In this document: in pieces, positions 3,613-27,682 of the stretch
Layout of the letters: every line of letters begins with the position of its first letter
Numbering within the stretch: position 1 is the first letter of the stretch
From: a virus
Taxonomy: Duplodnaviria; Caudoviricetes
Virus record (IMG/VR): IMGVR_UViG_3300043618_000014
Span: 1 to 59,599 of that record
Direction: 5' to 3' (one strand)
Length of the DNA: 59,599 bases
Made by a program: the position numbers and the translations under genes
Notes under the pieces: generated by a model
Told to the model about the DNA's origin: nothing
The model's input: the letters and a program-made list of their open reading frames with translations, nothing else
Database searches by the model: none

Positions 3613-3882
3613 TCACCCCTCGTTGATCTTGTTCGCGTACGCGATCCAATCGGCCGCGCGCTTGCGCACCGCCTTGTGTATGTAGTGCGACACGTAACCG
3701 ATTCGAGCCACTTCGTCCGTGACACGTTCGACTTCGGTCACCGGAACCCAAACGATCCTCGGGGATCCACCCTCCCAACGGGCCACTCCCGGGAACCGTT
3801 CGCACATGCGGCGCGCGGCCCATGCCGTACGGCATGGGATCCGTAGGTGCAACACACCGCCGATGATGTCCGTCCCTCTCAT
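3613..3882 (-). CDS. Hypothetical protein
   Basis: In operon; ends KINEG. Confidence 0.65.
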   Translation of the reverse strand: MRGTDIIGGVLHLRIPCRTAWAARRMCERFPGVARWEGGSPRIVWVPVTEVERVTDEVARIGYVSHYIHKAVRKRAADWIAYANKINEG

Positions 3883-3885
3883 CTC

Positions 3886-4212
3886 TCACCCCTCGTTGAT
3901 CTTGCTCTCGTACAGGGCCCACGCGGTGCCCAGGTACACCGACCCCACGTAGGCGAACACGCGACGCACGCGACCTCGCCACACGATCCACGTCGTGCGC
4001 GGCTCGTCACTCGCGAGCCGAGCGGCCTTCGCGGCGGCCCTTCCGAACGCCGACGACCAGCGCTTGCGGCCGGCGTCGCTCACACCCCGCTCGATCAGGT
4101 AGTCGTCGACCGTGACCAGTCCCGTCCGCAGACGGTGTGCCGCCGCGAACACGGCGACCAACGGAGTACGAAGAGCCTTCTCGATCGCGGTGCGCATGAC
4201 CCGGAGTCGCAT
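3886..4212 (-). CDS. Hypothetical protein
   Basis: First gene after promoter, GGGAG RBS; ends KINEG. Confidence 0.75.
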   Translation of the reverse strand: MRLRVMRTAIEKALRTPLVAVFAAAHRLRTGLVTVDDYLIERGVSDAGRKRWSSAFGRAAAKAARLASDEPRTTWIVWRGRVRRVFAYVGSVYLGTAWALYESKINEG

Positions 4213-5665: not shown

Positions 5666-5810
5666 TGTTGCGCCGCCCAGGTTGCGGCGTCCTCATGTTA
5701 CGCCTCGTGTTACGCCCGGTGACCAGGTGTTTCGCCGGATGTTGCGCGTGTTGCGCACATGCCCCGTGAAGGCCGTTGAGTGCTCGCGTAACAGGCGCAA
5801 CATGTTGCAC
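5666..5810. repeat. clt-like cluster of 8-bp TGTT(A/G/T)CGC repeats
   Basis: Copies at 5666, 5696, 5708, 5728, 5740, 5749 (direct), 5786, 5795 (inverted), 5803 (variant), right after the translocase stop. Confidence 0.75.
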
Positions 5811-7364
5811 CTATACCCAGGGACCCTTGACCACGTTGCTCTCGGGAGAGAGTGCCTTGAAGCGTCCCGCGCCGTCACTCTCGATGCGCCGCGCCTTGCG
5901 CATGCGCGCCAGTACGGCACGTGTGACCGCCGGGTTGGGCATGTCGGCCGCGCGGGTCAGACCGTCGACACGCCACCACGCGCCGTCGCTCAGGACCGCC
6001 GTCAACCGCTCCTCCTGCGTCCCCTTGGACACCCCCTCGATCAGGTCGTCGGCAGCCTTCCTGGGGCCGGGGATCGTGACGGAGGACGCCGTGCCCACGA
6101 CGCTCGCGCAGCGCCGTACGGCGTCGGCGAACAGCGGCATGGACATCTCGGGAACGCGGCGCATGACCGGGGCGCGGTCGCGGGGCGAGCGGACCAGGAC
6201 GTGGCCGTGCATGGGCAGCCTCGTGCCGTCCCATCCCTCGCCCACCGATCCGACCCCGAACAGCTTGTCGGACTCCGCTCGGGTGTTGACGTGGGCGCAC
6301 ACGGTGGTGGAGAACTGAGATCTCAATCCCCCACCCGTGGCGCTGCGGGCGGTCTTGAAGAGGTCCGCTCCCACGCTCTGCGTCCCCATGATCAAGGTCT
6401 GCCCGAGCGATCGGGACTTGCGCGCGACCTCGTCGATGGCGTCCATCATCGGGGTGCCCGCAAGGTCGGTGAACTCGTCGACGACGATCACGTCCCACGG
6501 CTCCTCCTCCGTCGCCTCCCACACCTTGGCGGGCTCGTCGATCTCGCCTCGTACGAAAGCCTGCGCCCGCTCCGCGACCAGGTCACCGCGCCTGCGCATG
6601 GTCTTCACGCATCCCTCAAGTGCGGCGAGTCCCTCCTTGTCGGCCCGGTGGACGGTCACCCGCGACCCCCGCAGACACCCGAGCAGACGATCTCCCTTGG
6701 GGTCGATGACGAGGATCCGCAGGTGGGCGCGGGGAAGCAGGTCGGCGATGGCGTCCGCCATGATCACCGACTTGCCCGCGTCGGTGCATCCCGCGATGAG
6801 GATGTGACCGCCTTCCAGCGGCACGACCACCCCGCCTCCCAGGTCGATGGGGTCGTGGGTAGCGGGCACCGTGACGCGCGGCTCCCACTTCGTGGCCGGG
6901 ATCACGTCCCACTTCGACGACGACTCATCGTCGGCGTCCGCCACCACGTCCACCCGCTTCTCGACACCCTGCAACTTCGCGAGGTTCAGGGCGGTCTTGC
7001 TCTTCTCCGTGGCCACCTTGGCCTTGACCAGGGGGTCACCTTCCCGGGTCCACCGTGCGGTGAAGCAGGCGAGAGCGACCAGCCCGGTGGCGGTCATGCC
7101 GCCCACGGTGTTGACTACGCCGGGCCCGGTGGCCAGGGTCCACGTGGCCCACGCCCCGGCCAACGACCACGTGGTGCCCGCGACGATCGCGGGCGCGGCG
7201 TAGCGGCGGTCGTAGGCCACGACCGCGCCGCAGCCGATCACCCCGACTGCTGCGGTCACGGTGCCCGCTCCCACGGCCAAGTCGTGCGCGTACGGCGTCG
7301 CGGCCATGATCTCCGTGACCGCGAACACGGAGCCCGCGATGACCGTGGGCTTGTCGACGGTCAT
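5811..7364 (-). CDS. traB: FtsK/SpoIIIE-family DNA translocase, TraB-like
   Basis: N-terminal TM helices; Walker A AGCTDAGKS, Walker B IVVDE, MGTQ motif; C-terminal wHTH-like segment; ATGA overlap with upstream gene. Confidence 0.85.
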   Translation of the reverse strand: MTVDKPTVIAGSVFAVTEIMAATPYAHDLAVGAGTVTAAVGVIGCGAVVAYDRRYAAPAIVAGTTWSLAGAWATWTLATGPGVVNTVGGMTATGLVALACFTARWTREGDPLVKAKVATEKSKTALNLAKLQGVEKRVDVVADADDESSSKWDVIPATKWEPRVTVPATHDPIDLGGGVVVPLEGGHILIAGCTDAGKSVIMADAIADLLPRAHLRILVIDPKGDRLLGCLRGSRVTVHRADKEGLAALEGCVKTMRRRGDLVAERAQAFVRGEIDEPAKVWEATEEEPWDVIVVDEFTDLAGTPMMDAIDEVARKSRSLGQTLIMGTQSVGADLFKTARSATGGGLRSQFSTTVCAHVNTRAESDKLFGVGSVGEGWDGTRLPMHGHVLVRSPRDRAPVMRRVPEMSMPLFADAVRRCASVVGTASSVTIPGPRKAADDLIEGVSKGTQEERLTAVLSDGAWWRVDGLTRAADMPNPAVTRAVLARMRKARRIESDGAGRFKALSPESNVVKGPWV

Positions 7365-8416
7365 GACGAGCACCCCTTGGCCACGGCCAGGAGCCGGCGT
7401 CCGGTGCGGTCGGAGATGCCGAACCGCGTGGCCACGTCGAACCCGTTCGTGTCCTTGTCGTCCGCGAGCATGGCCATGACCGTGGCCACGCGAGGGTCGT
7501 GGCCACGTGTGGCCGTGGCCAAGGGCTTGACCGCAGTCGTGGCCGTGGCCACGGTCGGCGTGTACGGCCGGCCCAGGAGCGCGGTCATGGCCATGGTGTC
7601 CGTGGCCACGAGTGCCTTGTCCACGGCCGTGGCCACGCCGGCCACACGCTTGGCCACGGACACGCGAGGTGTGGCCATGGCCACGTGGCCACGGTCGTCG
7701 GTGTTGGCCACGTCGTCGGTGGCCATGGCCATCGGTGCGACGGTCGGACGCGGAGGGATGGCCACGGTCACGACCTCGGGCACGATGGCCATGGCCACGT
7801 GGCCACGGTCGTCCGTCGTGGCCACGGTCACGTCGTCCATGACCGTGGCCACGGGTGCGGTCGTGGCCGTGGCCACGTACCGACGTACCTGATGCATGAG
7901 CGCGCCGAACGCGAACAGAGCGGCCACGGGAGGAGCCGCCGCTACGGCGTAGTACATGAACGGCTTGTCCGCGCCCACCCCCACCACGTTGAACGCGATG
8001 GATCCCGCCGATCCACCAATGGTCAGACCCCATCCCCACCACGAGAAACCCAGACGGGCGATCGCAGCCAGGAGGATCAACAGTTCACCGATGATGATGA
8101 ACGTGTCGATCGTCCCCGGCCAGAGCCACGCGTGAAACCCGGCGGGTACGCCGTTGGCCACGGCCACACCCTTCAGGTGTGCGTAGGAACGGACGAAAGC
8201 GGCCACGGTCAGCAGTGTCGTGGCCACGCCGGCCAGGATGGCCACGGCCACGGCCATGCGCCGCGCCTTGTCGTCCCTGTCCGTGGCCATGTCCGTGGCC
8301 ACGGGCTTCCTCATCTGCGGCTTGTCCGTGGCCACGTGGCCACGTGTGGCCATGGCCACGACTGCGGTCACGATGGCCATGGCCATCACGACGGCCACGA
8401 TCAACCAGAGGTTCAT
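7361..8416 (-). CDS. DUF2637-like / Spd-like membrane protein with VAT/MAM low-complexity linker and C-terminal HTH
   Basis: AAGGAG RBS; AFVRSYAHL..AWLWPGTID..S.AFNV..AAAPPVAAL pattern; tail FDVATRFGISDRTGRRLL. Confidence 0.8.
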   Translation of the reverse strand: MNLWLIVAVVMAMAIVTAVVAMATRGHVATDKPQMRKPVATDMATDRDDKARRMAVAVAILAGVATTLLTVAAFVRSYAHLKGVAVANGVPAGFHAWLWPGTIDTFIIIGELLILLAAIARLGFSWWGWGLTIGGSAGSIAFNVVGVGADKPFMYYAVAAAPPVAALFAFGALMHQVRRYVATATTAPVATVMDDVTVATTDDRGHVAMAIVPEVVTVAIPPRPTVAPMAMATDDVANTDDRGHVAMATPRVSVAKRVAGVATAVDKALVATDTMAMTALLGRPYTPTVATATTAVKPLATATRGHDPRVATVMAMLADDKDTNGFDVATRFGISDRTGRRLLAVAKGCSS

Positions 8417-8541
8417 CTCGTACTCCTTGTCCGCGTGGCCGTGGCCACGTGGCCACGGCCACTGTTTGTGTCCGGACAAGGAAGAGTACATGACTGTCAA
8501 CACCGTTGCAACAGCAAACGACCCCGTGGCCACATGGCCAC
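7378..8541. repeat. Dense TGGCCA (often GTGGCCAC) palindrome array
   Basis: About 39 exact TGGCCA by hand count plus many 1-mismatch variants; extends into non-coding DNA. Confidence 0.95.
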
Positions 8542-8549
8542 GGGGTCGT
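8518..8549. terminator. Hairpin/terminator with TGGCCA in both arms
   Basis: ACGACCCCGTGGCCA / TGGCCACGGGGTCGT inverted repeat. Confidence 0.7.
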
Positions 8550-8564
8550 CGTCCTGCGAGTCGG

Positions 8565-8966
8565 TCAGCCGTACGAGGCGACCAGGTGCCACCCCGGTCG
8601 GGGGTCGGTGGGAGTGATCCCCAACGCGTCGATCGCCTGCTTGAGGACGGCGTCCCAGTAGTGTCCGGTCAGGCCCATGAGTGTCGCGTCGAACCGCTTG
8701 GACCAGTCGCAGGAGGAGTCGACCGACGCCGACGTGACCGTGGCCAGGAACACGCCGCTCCCCTCGTACGCGTACATCACCGTGGACACGCCCTTGATCC
8801 CCGCCGTCTTCAGCGCCGTGTCCAAGGAGTCACAGAAGTCCTCTCCGTCCGCGTGCCACGGGAAGGCGGGCTCTTCGTCCTCGTTGGTCTGCTCAAACTC
8901 CCAGCCGTTGAGCGAGTCCCCCAGGGGGTACCCGTACACGATCTTCGCTCCGGAGTGATGCCCCAT
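8565..8966 (-). CDS. Hypothetical protein
   Basis: MGHHSGAKIVYGY; acidic globular composition. Confidence 0.75.
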   Translation of the reverse strand: MGHHSGAKIVYGYPLGDSLNGWEFEQTNEDEEPAFPWHADGEDFCDSLDTALKTAGIKGVSTVMYAYEGSGVFLATVTSASVDSSCDWSKRFDATLMGLTGHYWDAVLKQAIDALGITPTDPRPGWHLVASYG

Positions 8967-8968
8967 GA

Positions 8969-9268
8969 TCAACCCTTCCCCTCGGTTCGCTTGGACTTGT
9001 TGGCCTCGTTGCGCTTGCGGTTGGCGACCGCCCGAAGCGTCTGTTCGCGGTCGTCGTACGTGCTGCCACCCCATACCCCGGTCTGCTTGGGCCCGGTGAT
9101 CTCGTGGAACACGGTGTGCAGGCAGGTGTCTCGGACGGGGCAGCCGGCGCAGGTGGCCCGCGCGTGCTCGATCCCCTTCACGTCACCCTCGTGGGGAAAC
9201 ATCTCGTCGGTCCCCATGTCCTTGCACGCGGCCTGGTCTATCCACTGCCACCGATCGCGGGCGCTCAC
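8969..9268 (-). CDS. whiB: WhiB-family Fe-S transcription factor
   Basis: W..QAAC...C..CPV...C...GVWGG signature. Confidence 0.93.
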   Translation of the reverse strand: MSARDRWQWIDQAACKDMGTDEMFPHEGDVKGIEHARATCAGCPVRDTCLHTVFHEITGPKQTGVWGGSTYDDREQTLRAVANRKRNEANKSKRTEGKG

Positions 9269-26075: not shown

Positions 26076-27176
26076 TCATCGTACGCCCGGATAGGTAACG
26101 CTCCGTGCGTATCCTCGTTGAACATCGACAGCGTGTGACCACGCTTCCATCCAACGCCACGCGTTCCCGCCGTAGGTGAGCGCCTGTGTGGCAGCCCATC
26201 CCATGTCGGCCTGTTCGCGCCGAAGCGCCTCGTTGGTCATGAGTTCCCGCAGAGCCCGCACCCAATCCCGAGGCCGCTTGGCCATGAAGCCCACACCCGT
26301 TCGTTGGTGGAAGCGTTCGTACTCCACCCGAGGCGACGCCACCCACGGCACACCCAACGCGGACATCTCCAGCACCTTGAGCCGGCTCTTGCCATCGTTG
26401 AACGCCGACTGCGCCAGAGGGGCCACACCCACACCGAGACCGGACACCGCCTCGGGCCACTCCTCAAGAGGCAACCCGCCCGTGGCGGTCACGTCACTCT
26501 CCAGCCCGAGTGCCTCCTTGAAGCCGGCACCCTCGCCGACCACGCGGAAGGCGAACCCCTCGTCGATCAGGGTGCGCGGCGCGTGACCCATGAGAGGCAC
26601 GTCGTCCGGGTGGGAGTGCAGGGAACCCGGGTACCCGAATTCGCTCCCGACGTCCGTGTGGGCGATCGAGTGATAGTGGTCGGGAACGTAGTTGTCGATC
26701 ACCCGGGTCACCCGTGTGCGCGGCGTGTACCGCTTCTCCAGAGCGCGGGTCGTCGTCGTCACCATGGTCGCGTCGCGGCACGCGTTCGCGGCGGACACCC
26801 ACGAGAAGTCGTGACCCGCTTTGGGGTGCAGCCCGACGAACGCCGGGTTGCTCGGGTGAATCGAGGAGAGGTCGTCGTCCATGTCGACGACCACCGCGAT
26901 ACCGGTCTTGCGGATGACGGGGATCGCACGGGCGAGGACGCCGTGGGCCACGCGTTGCATGATCAGGACGTCGGTACCTTCGGGGATCCCGTCCACCCGG
27001 TCGATCGAGCCGTCCGCTTGGACCATCGCACGGAACCCGTCCCGCTTCCCTGGTGTGACGATCGAGACGTCGTGGCCCTGCGCCTGCAAGGCGAGTGCCG
27101 GGTAGATCATGCGGAAGTGGCCGCAGCCGAACGGGTCGGCCGGGTAGACGCAGACCTTCAGCTTGCCCCGGCTCAC
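26076..27176 (-). CDS. Glycosyltransferase (GT-B/GT4-like)
   Basis: D..GCG.FRM..P, DMDDD, APL....FN..KS.LK.LE. Confidence 0.85.
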   Translation of the reverse strand: MSRGKLKVCVYPADPFGCGHFRMIYPALALQAQGHDVSIVTPGKRDGFRAMVQADGSIDRVDGIPEGTDVLIMQRVAHGVLARAIPVIRKTGIAVVVDMDDDLSSIHPSNPAFVGLHPKAGHDFSWVSAANACRDATMVTTTTRALEKRYTPRTRVTRVIDNYVPDHYHSIAHTDVGSEFGYPGSLHSHPDDVPLMGHAPRTLIDEGFAFRVVGEGAGFKEALGLESDVTATGGLPLEEWPEAVSGLGVGVAPLAQSAFNDGKSRLKVLEMSALGVPWVASPRVEYERFHQRTGVGFMAKRPRDWVRALRELMTNEALRREQADMGWAATQALTYGGNAWRWMEAWSHAVDVQRGYARSVTYPGVR

Positions 27177-27682
27177 GCGGACGCCTTTCGCGCGAGGAAC
27201 TTTCGACTTGATTCGGCGCGGCACGCACGACAGTCGCGAGAGGTCTTGTCGCTACCGGGTTGTTGTGGCCGTGCATACGTGTTCGACACGTCGAAAGCGT
27301 GGCCACGGGGGCAATGCGTTTTGAGCGCGTTGTCCGCGCTCGAACCGTGGCCACGTAGGAGGTTTTCTCGGTGAGTGGTCAACGCCAAATGCGACGGACG
27401 AACGCATGCGCGGTGTGAGCACAAGTCGCCACCGGAACAGTTTTCACGCGTGTGACACAGGTGATCGACGTGCATCCCCTTGGGAGTGGGGCCGCAAAAG
27501 ATCGCGTAGGCCGCGCGGTGTGCCCCTGTGTAGGAACCCTGGAAGTACAAGTTCCCGTACCCGTGTGAATTTCGGGCGCCGGTGAAGTACCAGCACCCAT
27601 AGGGATCCGTGGTGCGATCGGTCTTGGAGATCAGTCGAGCCATGTTATCGCCGATGATTCGGACATTCATGGCAATCACCAC
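27173..27682 (-). CDS. HNH homing-type endonuclease
   Basis: CWYFTG....GYG, AHR, DHLC, CVRPSHL, KTHCPRGH; lower GC. Confidence 0.88.
   Translation of the reverse strand: MVIAMNVRIIGDNMARLISKTDRTTDPYGCWYFTGARNSHGYGNLYFQGSYTGAHRAAYAIFCGPTPKGMHVDHLCHTRENCSGGDLCSHRACVRPSHLALTTHRENLLRGHGSSADNALKTHCPRGHAFDVSNTYARPQQPGSDKTSRDCRACRAESSRKFLARKASA

Follow-up and report, generated by a model that had tools for sequence, protein, structure and literature searches.

SpdA2 of the Streptomyces plasmid pIJ101 binds sps, a palindrome located inside its own coding region. PMC4170104 describes sps as a 12-bp palindrome present in 2-3 copies, with a function that was tested by synonymous recoding. The clt loci of pSVH1, pJV1, pIJ101 and pWTY27 consist of short, element-specific repeats that are read by a helix at the C-terminus of TraB or TraA (PMC4447253, PMC3583192). 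The spread protein SpdB2 is described as binding DNA non-specifically and as binding TraB, and homologues on actinophages have been suggested to spread phage DNA (PMC4447253). Here an array of 39 copies of the palindrome TGGCCA is described, which is written in and around the gene for a phage membrane protein of the DUF2637 family with a C-terminal helix-turn-helix (HTH) domain, next to the gene for a TraB/FtsK-type DNA translocase. The whole stretch analysed, referred to as the window, is the complete 59,599-bp record IMGVR_UViG_3300043618_000014 of a tailed phage, which has direct terminal repeats and is rated 100% complete. The source is a soil phage of filamentous bacteria.

A local array of TGGCCA palindromes

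The window contains 77 exact TGGCCA, compared with 14.3 +/- 3.1 (maximum 23) in 100 dinucleotide shuffles of the whole window, and 39 of the 77 fall within 7378-8540. An earlier note on this DNA, made from the sequence alone, had put about 39 copies in roughly 1.2 kb, and the exact count agrees with it. The array is assigned to no strand. Its 39 sites include 18 that are GTGGCCAC and 17 that are CGTGGCCACG, and the logo reads C[G/A]TGGCCA[C/T]G, with the information ending at two bases on either side of the core and unrelated sequence flanking the copies. Another 17 octamers differ from GTGGCCAC by no more than one base. The 10-bp form is concentrated at this locus, since 17 of the 22 copies of CGTGGCCACG in the whole phage lie within 7427-8457. 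The half-site CGTGGCC is found about 54 times in the array region versus 77 times in the other 58 kb. Counted per kb on both strands (CGTGGCC/GGCCACG), it reaches 35 in kb 7 and 23 in kb 8 and stays at or below 6 in every other kb, and no comparable array was found elsewhere in the window by this count. Outside the array TGGCCA occurs 38 times against a Markov expectation of 37.8, and GGCC 453 times against 444, so the excess is local and there is no genome-wide bias towards the word or avoidance of it. The word CGGACAAG is mildly enriched in the array region, which has four of its 11 window copies.

The sites are located in the parts of the gene that encode the N-terminal loop, the linker and the tail of the membrane protein. 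The conserved membrane core (7876-8154) appears as a gap in the array and contains no exact TGGCCA, in line with the earlier observation that the sites nearly skip the transmembrane region. The coding sequence (7364-8416, minus strand) holds 35 of the 39 sites, and four are non-coding. As had also been noted, the word dictates peptides: 32 of the 39 sites share one codon phase and are translated as VAT, MAT, MAM or VAM, while the other seven lie outside this main phase, and copies are found in all three codon phases. In their spacing the sites follow multiples of three but no helical period. Tandem repetition within the gene is short and local, with units of 8, 12, 17-19 and 27 bp in about two copies each. 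The proposal that the array runs into the start of traB, the translocase gene, fares less well. That gene has only two exact sites (7010 and 7130), and the site at 7378 belongs to the 3' end of the membrane-HTH gene and not to traB.

Two further perfect copies of CGTGGCCACG lie 48 bp apart, at 27298 and 27346, in an HNH-like open frame on the minus strand (27173-27682). They were considered as an operator pair and rejected. Both are RGH codons inside the open frame and are probably there by chance.

Selection acts on the DNA word and not on the peptide. Tripeptides of the form [MVL]-A-[IMTNKSR] can be encoded with or without TGGCCA, and all 31 that occur in the membrane protein are written with it, compared with 17 of 62 in 13 other phage genes (9,300 codons) used as a reference. 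These eligible tripeptides are also about 13 times denser in the membrane gene than in the reference genes. When synonymous codons were redrawn from the phage's own usage, the coding sequence contained 7.0 +/- 2.3 copies of the word, with a maximum of 16 in 5,000 draws, and permuting the codons of the membrane gene itself gave 18.4 +/- 2.3 copies, with a maximum of 26; the observed number is 35. The dipeptide V-A is encoded by GTG-GCC in 26 of 28 cases here and in 19 of 103 cases in 12 other genes. The codon tests thus bear out the earlier view that the DNA rather than the protein is selected. That view would have been weakened by homologues that keep VAT peptides in random codons, and the related phage described below (L005) instead writes V-A as GTG-GCC in 24 of 26 cases.

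The membrane protein and its gene

The array-bearing gene (7364-8416, minus strand) encodes a membrane protein of 351 residues, in which the DUF2637 core is joined to an N-terminal loop of low complexity, a linker that is disordered and an HTH at the C-terminus. The start was chosen as the ATG that follows the AAGGAG; the open frame itself is 390 codons long. Pfam assigns residues 105-236 of this 390-residue frame to DUF2637 (PF10935) with 44.1 bits against a cut-off of 22.8, and the best PHROG match is family 733 (1.4e-16), which is labelled excisionase. No initiator or helicase-loader domain was found in the protein with Pfam or PHROG, which returned only DUF2637 and the excisionase-labelled family. 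A representative library contains 540 DUF2637 relatives at E values up to 0.001, and homologues of the gene are present in Streptomyces genomes.

An AlphaFold2 model built with 71 relatives places helices at residues 2-25, 42-87, 95-119, 126-145 and 152-185, leaves residues 186-305 disordered and ends in a three-helix HTH at residues 308-350. The predicted local distance difference test (pLDDT) of this last domain is 95-98, so the HTH that had been read from the sequence is also modelled with confidence. A Foldseek search with the model of the whole protein returned no significant match. The TGA of the membrane gene (7361-7363) overlaps the ATG of the downstream translocase gene (ATGA), and the two genes are translationally coupled.

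The word continues into the non-coding DNA upstream of the gene. A terminator-like hairpin (8517-8550, minus strand) follows the upstream gene (8565-9074), and its two arms are the sites at 8527 and 8535. It has a 15-bp stem in the RNA fold and a U-rich tail and is supported by a terminator scan; the whole 161-nt stretch folds with z = -8.0. A second hairpin occupies the 5' leader (8415-8494, minus strand). Its outer stem, CCUUGUCC/GGACAAGG, covers the Shine-Dalgarno sequence AAGGAG and is kept in L005, and its inner stem (8435-8462) is built of GTGGCC words (sites 8442 and 8450). The four non-coding sites are therefore all found in these two hairpins, as had been claimed for the upstream DNA and for both arms of a hairpin. 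Between the two hairpins lies a 17-base stretch (8495-8511, minus strand) with two -35-like hexamers, TTGCAA and TTGACA, which is identical in L005. Judged by these hexamers, it may serve as the promoter of the operon; a consensus promoter scan made no call at 8495-8511. The leader also contains a lone TGTCCGGACA palindrome at 8469, which resembles the words of two other DUF2637 loci, L017 and L028.

Relatives of the array

L005 is a 57.6-kb phage record with terminal repeats and the same cassette, in which the membrane protein is 56% and the translocase 77% identical to those of the window. Its orthologous gene and leader contain 40 copies of CGTGGCC, and 20 of the 33 matches to CGTGGCCA in its genome lie in the gene. 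The phage shares the hairpin built of the word as well as the promoter-like stretch, and within the same outer stem its leader has six head-to-tail GTGGCC hexamers (3873-3902). The word CGGACAAG is frequent there, with six copies in the gene. Alignment of the two genes places 47 sites here and 29 in L005, of which only 16 occupy shared columns; the sites thus turn over while the word stays.

A closer relative may exist, with a translocase (P0158) that is 97% identical and a membrane protein (P0002) that is 70-81% identical, depending on the method. Most of the change in P0002 is in the linker that bears the array. The two proteins are presumed to be encoded on one contig, solely because their longest contigs have the same length (29,465 bp). 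P0002 contains 27 eligible tripeptides, while the median among 145 other representatives of the family is 0.5 per 100 residues (maximum 2.4). Within the closest clade, where word and tail could be compared through peptides only, the proteins P0002-P0009 have repeated peptides of other kinds, VRT, SDKP and RTADSGH among them. Two scans of metagenomes found no relatives. A second viral scan and a 17-mer scan found only the L005 contig (also L073), and cultured phages gave no match with megablast or tblastn. A tblastn search of the membrane core against 72,556 plasmids was also without a match, possibly owing to the low-complexity filter.

Arrays of other words occur in more distant DUF2637 genes. 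The family sample comprised 64 viral loci, two distant bacterial loci from Streptomyces and the gene of the window, 67 open frames in all. GGGACA/TGTCCC occurs 49 times in L017 and 47 times in L027, versus 3 and 5 times in the rest of those loci, and most of these copies are in the linker or in the roughly 600 bp of non-coding DNA that precede the gene. The word is CGGAACC in L007, L018 and L051, CGACGGAA in L033 and L023, and CGTTGC in L006 and L068. Twelve array-bearing loci, picked and labelled by the analyst, were compared in pairs. The seven pairs with the same word have 20-43 identical residues in the last 48, and the 59 pairs with different words have 2-16, although 21 of the latter have cores as alike as those of the same-word pairs. 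Since identity of the tail separates the two groups of pairs and identity of the core does not, the word follows the C-terminal tail. The earlier note had asked whether homologues carry other palindromes co-varying with the recognition helix of the HTH, and the distant homologues do carry other words, which go with the tail.

Among other DUF2637 representatives, highly repeated tripeptides are also present in P0139 (TGT, 22 times), P0076 (AVP, 13), P0056 (TET, 10), P0154 (ADQ, 14) and P0095 (GDR, 11). These may mark further arrays of DNA words.

The neighbouring pump and its own repeats

The gene downstream of the membrane gene (5814-7364, minus strand) encodes a TraB/FtsK-type DNA translocase, or pump, of 517 residues with hydrophobic helices at the N-terminus, a motor and a C-terminal winged helix. 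It matches PF01580 with 30.4 bits against a cut-off of 24, and with a profile built from 27 relatives the FtsK structure 2ius is hit at 2.1e-16. Identity to plasmid FtsK/TraB genes is only 25-32%, over the motor. In the AlphaFold2 model the motor has a pLDDT of about 90, and the winged helix (residues 450-504), made of three helices (450-490) and a beta hairpin (494-504), has a pLDDT of 85-90. The C-terminus also has weak profile matches to Z-alpha winged helices. Residues 6-144 are modelled as hydrophobic helices with a pLDDT of only 43-61.

Directly 3' of the pump gene is a cluster of seven GCG[C/T]AACA octamers (5666-5802), five on the minus and two on the plus strand. This stretch of 137 bp holds seven of the nine such octamers in the whole phage. 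In L005 all seven copies of the octamer are at the same place, in the same layout of five and two. The cluster has the form of a clt, with a few (3-9) short repeats of 5-9 bp at the end of a tra gene, and the palindrome array does not. It is a plausible predicted site for the pump, separate from the palindrome array, as judged by analogy with the plasmid loci. Because the pump comes with a winged helix and a cluster of its own, the palindrome array is probably not its site.

The L017 and L027 loci at first seemed to show that arrays exist without a pump, which was rejected. The complete records of both gave no match to PF01580 or to the profile of the pump family, but two genes downstream of the array gene each carries a divergent pump-like protein, of 661 residues in L017 (5619-7601) and 704 residues in L027 (5538-7649). 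Both begin with hydrophobic helices, contain a Walker A motif (GxSGAGKT) and end in a winged-helix-like region. They match nothing in Pfam, and hhalign gives a weak alignment to the pump profile (probability 24%, E 8e-4). On these features they are probably very divergent TraB/FtsK-like pumps that the family models miss. Four direct copies of a short word follow each pump-like gene, namely [CT]CTGACG in L017 (four of six in the locus) and CACGGAC in L027 (four of five). The numbers are small, and these repeats fit a layout with two sites.

No integrase (PF00589, PF00239) was found in the complete phage, which may be strictly lytic despite its plasmid-type transfer cassette. Searches of the phage for a ParA-type ATPase (PF01656) and for methyltransferases (PF00145, PF01555) gave no match, with the ParM and TubZ families and other methylase families outside their range.

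Possible functions of the array

The array is predicted to be a set of cis-acting docking sites for the C-terminal HTH of the membrane protein itself, a reading that is held with middling confidence. The word runs through the stretches that encode the flexible N-terminal loop and linker and on into the flanking hairpins, and its reader would be the HTH of the protein encoded by the same gene. Many membrane-anchored copies of this protein would then cover some 1.2 kb of the phage DNA, which would thereby be kept at the membrane. The tethering would take place beside the co-translated pump, which would find the DNA through its own winged helix and the GCGYAACA cluster. The identity of the binder, the tethering to the membrane, the hand-over to the pump and a role in spreading phage DNA through hyphae are all inferred. 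The earlier note had likewise proposed a centromere-like array, bound by the gene's own HTH, that would tether the genome to the membrane or septum for TraB, and this proposal is supported in part. Since there are sites in the leader and across the transcribed region, binding would probably also damp the expression of both genes.

Several observations weigh against this reading. The recognition helices differ between the two phages (DRTGRRLLAVAK here and VRTARRVLADAR in L005) though the word is nearly the same. For a classical HTH dimer a palindromic site of 10 bp is small, and most GTGGCC repeats in L005 are direct, so that the unit actually in use may be a half-site of 6-7 bases. In Foldseek the tail matches regulators of the Lrp, DeoR and GerE types only at E values above 1, which is not significant. 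The array is not general to the DUF2637 family, as only six of the 67 frames exceed the 99th percentile of 359 other frames in the density of their top 7-mer. The array and the tail are neighbouring DNA, and linkage or recombination alone could make the word follow the tail. The pump-like genes of L017 and L027 also leave the pump as a possible reader on that ground.

In the last case the array would be an extended clt, a loading site for the neighbouring pump that is read by the winged helix of the pump. The membrane and pump genes are translationally coupled and their synteny is kept in L005, known clt loci are element-specific short repeats beside tra genes that may enter coding sequence (PMC3583192, PMC4447253), and the array-bearing L017 and L027 have a pump-like gene nearby. 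The classical clt position is nevertheless taken by the separate GCGYAACA cluster, which L005 keeps in place, number and orientation. A clt as described in those two papers has 3-9 repeats in 50-175 bp, whereas the array has 39-55 copies in 1.2 kb, and a palindromic word can give no direction. In the closer relative the pump is 97% identical and the array gene only 70-81%, on the presumption that they share a contig. This explanation is considered unlikely. It is also rather improbable that the binder is the one proposed but its main job is the control of expression, with the array acting as a dense operator or roadblock over a toxic membrane protein and pump in a kil-kor-like manner. Plasmid traB is indeed toxic without its repressor TraR (PMC4447253). 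The sites here are found in the leader, over the hairpin of the ribosome-binding site and throughout the transcribed region that precedes the pump gene, and the leader architecture is kept in L005. Repression, however, needs only one or two operators and no membrane anchor, and 35 sites in the coding sequence with 31 forced tripeptides would be a high price for it. The position of the L017 and L027 sites, mostly in the upstream non-coding DNA, is compatible with either reading.

A functionless array, spread as a GC-rich palindrome by slippage and gene conversion through a tolerant low-complexity linker, would account for the short local tandems, the six tandem GTGGCC of the L005 leader, the predicted disorder of the array-bearing segments and the fast evolution of the membrane gene. 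Yet the flanks of the copies are unrelated, and the copies use three codon phases and also occupy two non-coding hairpins. The word persists at 56% protein identity with both shared and new sites, other lineages have built such arrays from other words at the same gene, and the phage has no comparable array elsewhere; such an origin is hard to credit. An origin of replication of the lambda type, in which the iterons lie inside the gene of their binding protein, has that arrangement in its favour. The iteron region of pWTY27 has 8-bp and 7-bp repeats (PMC3583192), which can be counted on the same side. A DUF2637 membrane protein that has neither an initiator nor a helicase-loader domain, and 39-55 sites, far above the usual number of iterons, make this a very remote prospect. 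The earlier note had named a decoy for GGCC/TGGCCA restriction enzymes or a methylation target as alternatives, and both strings are classical restriction sites. CG-to-CA/TG variants in the flanks, such as ATGGCCAT, would fit CpG deamination, if weakly. Over the remaining 58 kb, however, the word is as frequent as expected, the phage has no PF00145 or PF01555 methyltransferase (other methylase families were outside that search), and the relatives use unrelated and often non-palindromic words. Moreover, a decoy that can be cut would kill rather than protect a phage that carries it in its genome, and this alternative is the most doubtful of those considered.

Docking of the membrane protein on its own gene could also be the case of one member of a wider group. 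It is conceivable, though speculative, that this is a family of membrane-protein genes of actinomycete phages and mobile elements that each write their own centromere, with swappable tails and self-written docking words, and that the coated DNA, kept at the membrane or cross-wall, is passed to a TraB-type pump reading a second word, so that naked DNA is moved between hyphal compartments without virions. If docking is the function, this would be coding DNA shaped more by DNA binding than by the protein, with 31 tripeptides in 351 residues dictated by the palindrome. The large DUF2637 family, which occurs in actinomycete phages and prophages and in conjugative elements and has no known function, would also gain a testable role. 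The cassette separates the palindrome array, assigned to the membrane protein, from the clt-like cluster, assigned to the pump, and which protein reads which site is therefore directly testable. These results bear on the suggestion that Spd-like proteins help phage DNA to spread through the mycelium (PMC4447253).

Comparison with known systems

No paper describing such arrays in phage genes of the DUF2637 or Spd-like kind came up in a literature search, and the bare word returned only unrelated primers. Among partition centromeres, the omega heptads of pSM19035, parC of R1 and sopC of F are composed of many short sites, in either orientation, that a small DNA-binding protein coats into one large complex. 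The locus differs from these in that no ParA-type partner (PF01656) was found in the phage, in a search that did not extend to ParM and TubZ. The protein p16.7 of phi29 has a membrane anchor and a DNA-binding domain and organises phage DNA at the membrane; it is not known to have a specific site array.

SpdB2 and SpdB resemble the membrane protein as oligo-helical integral membrane proteins that are adjacent to traB and translationally coupled, and here there are five long helices in residues 2-185. SpdB2 differs in its non-specific DNA binding, and the account in PMC4447253 describes no site array for it. The GCGYAACA cluster (5666-5802) agrees with the clt loci, as far as these are described, in how large it is, how many copies it has and where it lies. 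The palindrome array, in contrast, is about ten times larger than a clt, extends over the upstream gene, is palindromic and stands beside a clt-like cluster.

SpdA2 and sps share with this locus a palindrome that dictates a repeated peptide (SRDD/E there and VAT/MAT here), and TraB and Spd genes are present on pIJ101 as well. In the published description SpdA2 is a soluble protein of 135 residues with an N-terminal binding domain, whereas the protein here is a 351-residue membrane protein with a C-terminal HTH. The sps site has 12 bp and 2-3 copies, and the array has 39 sites, the 10-bp CGTGGCCACG and no SRDD/E in its protein. SpdA2/sps, with its 2-3 sites, is the nearest published case that was found, and what is new here is the large palindromic array, the codon test, the turnover of the sites and the presence of two cis sites in one cassette.

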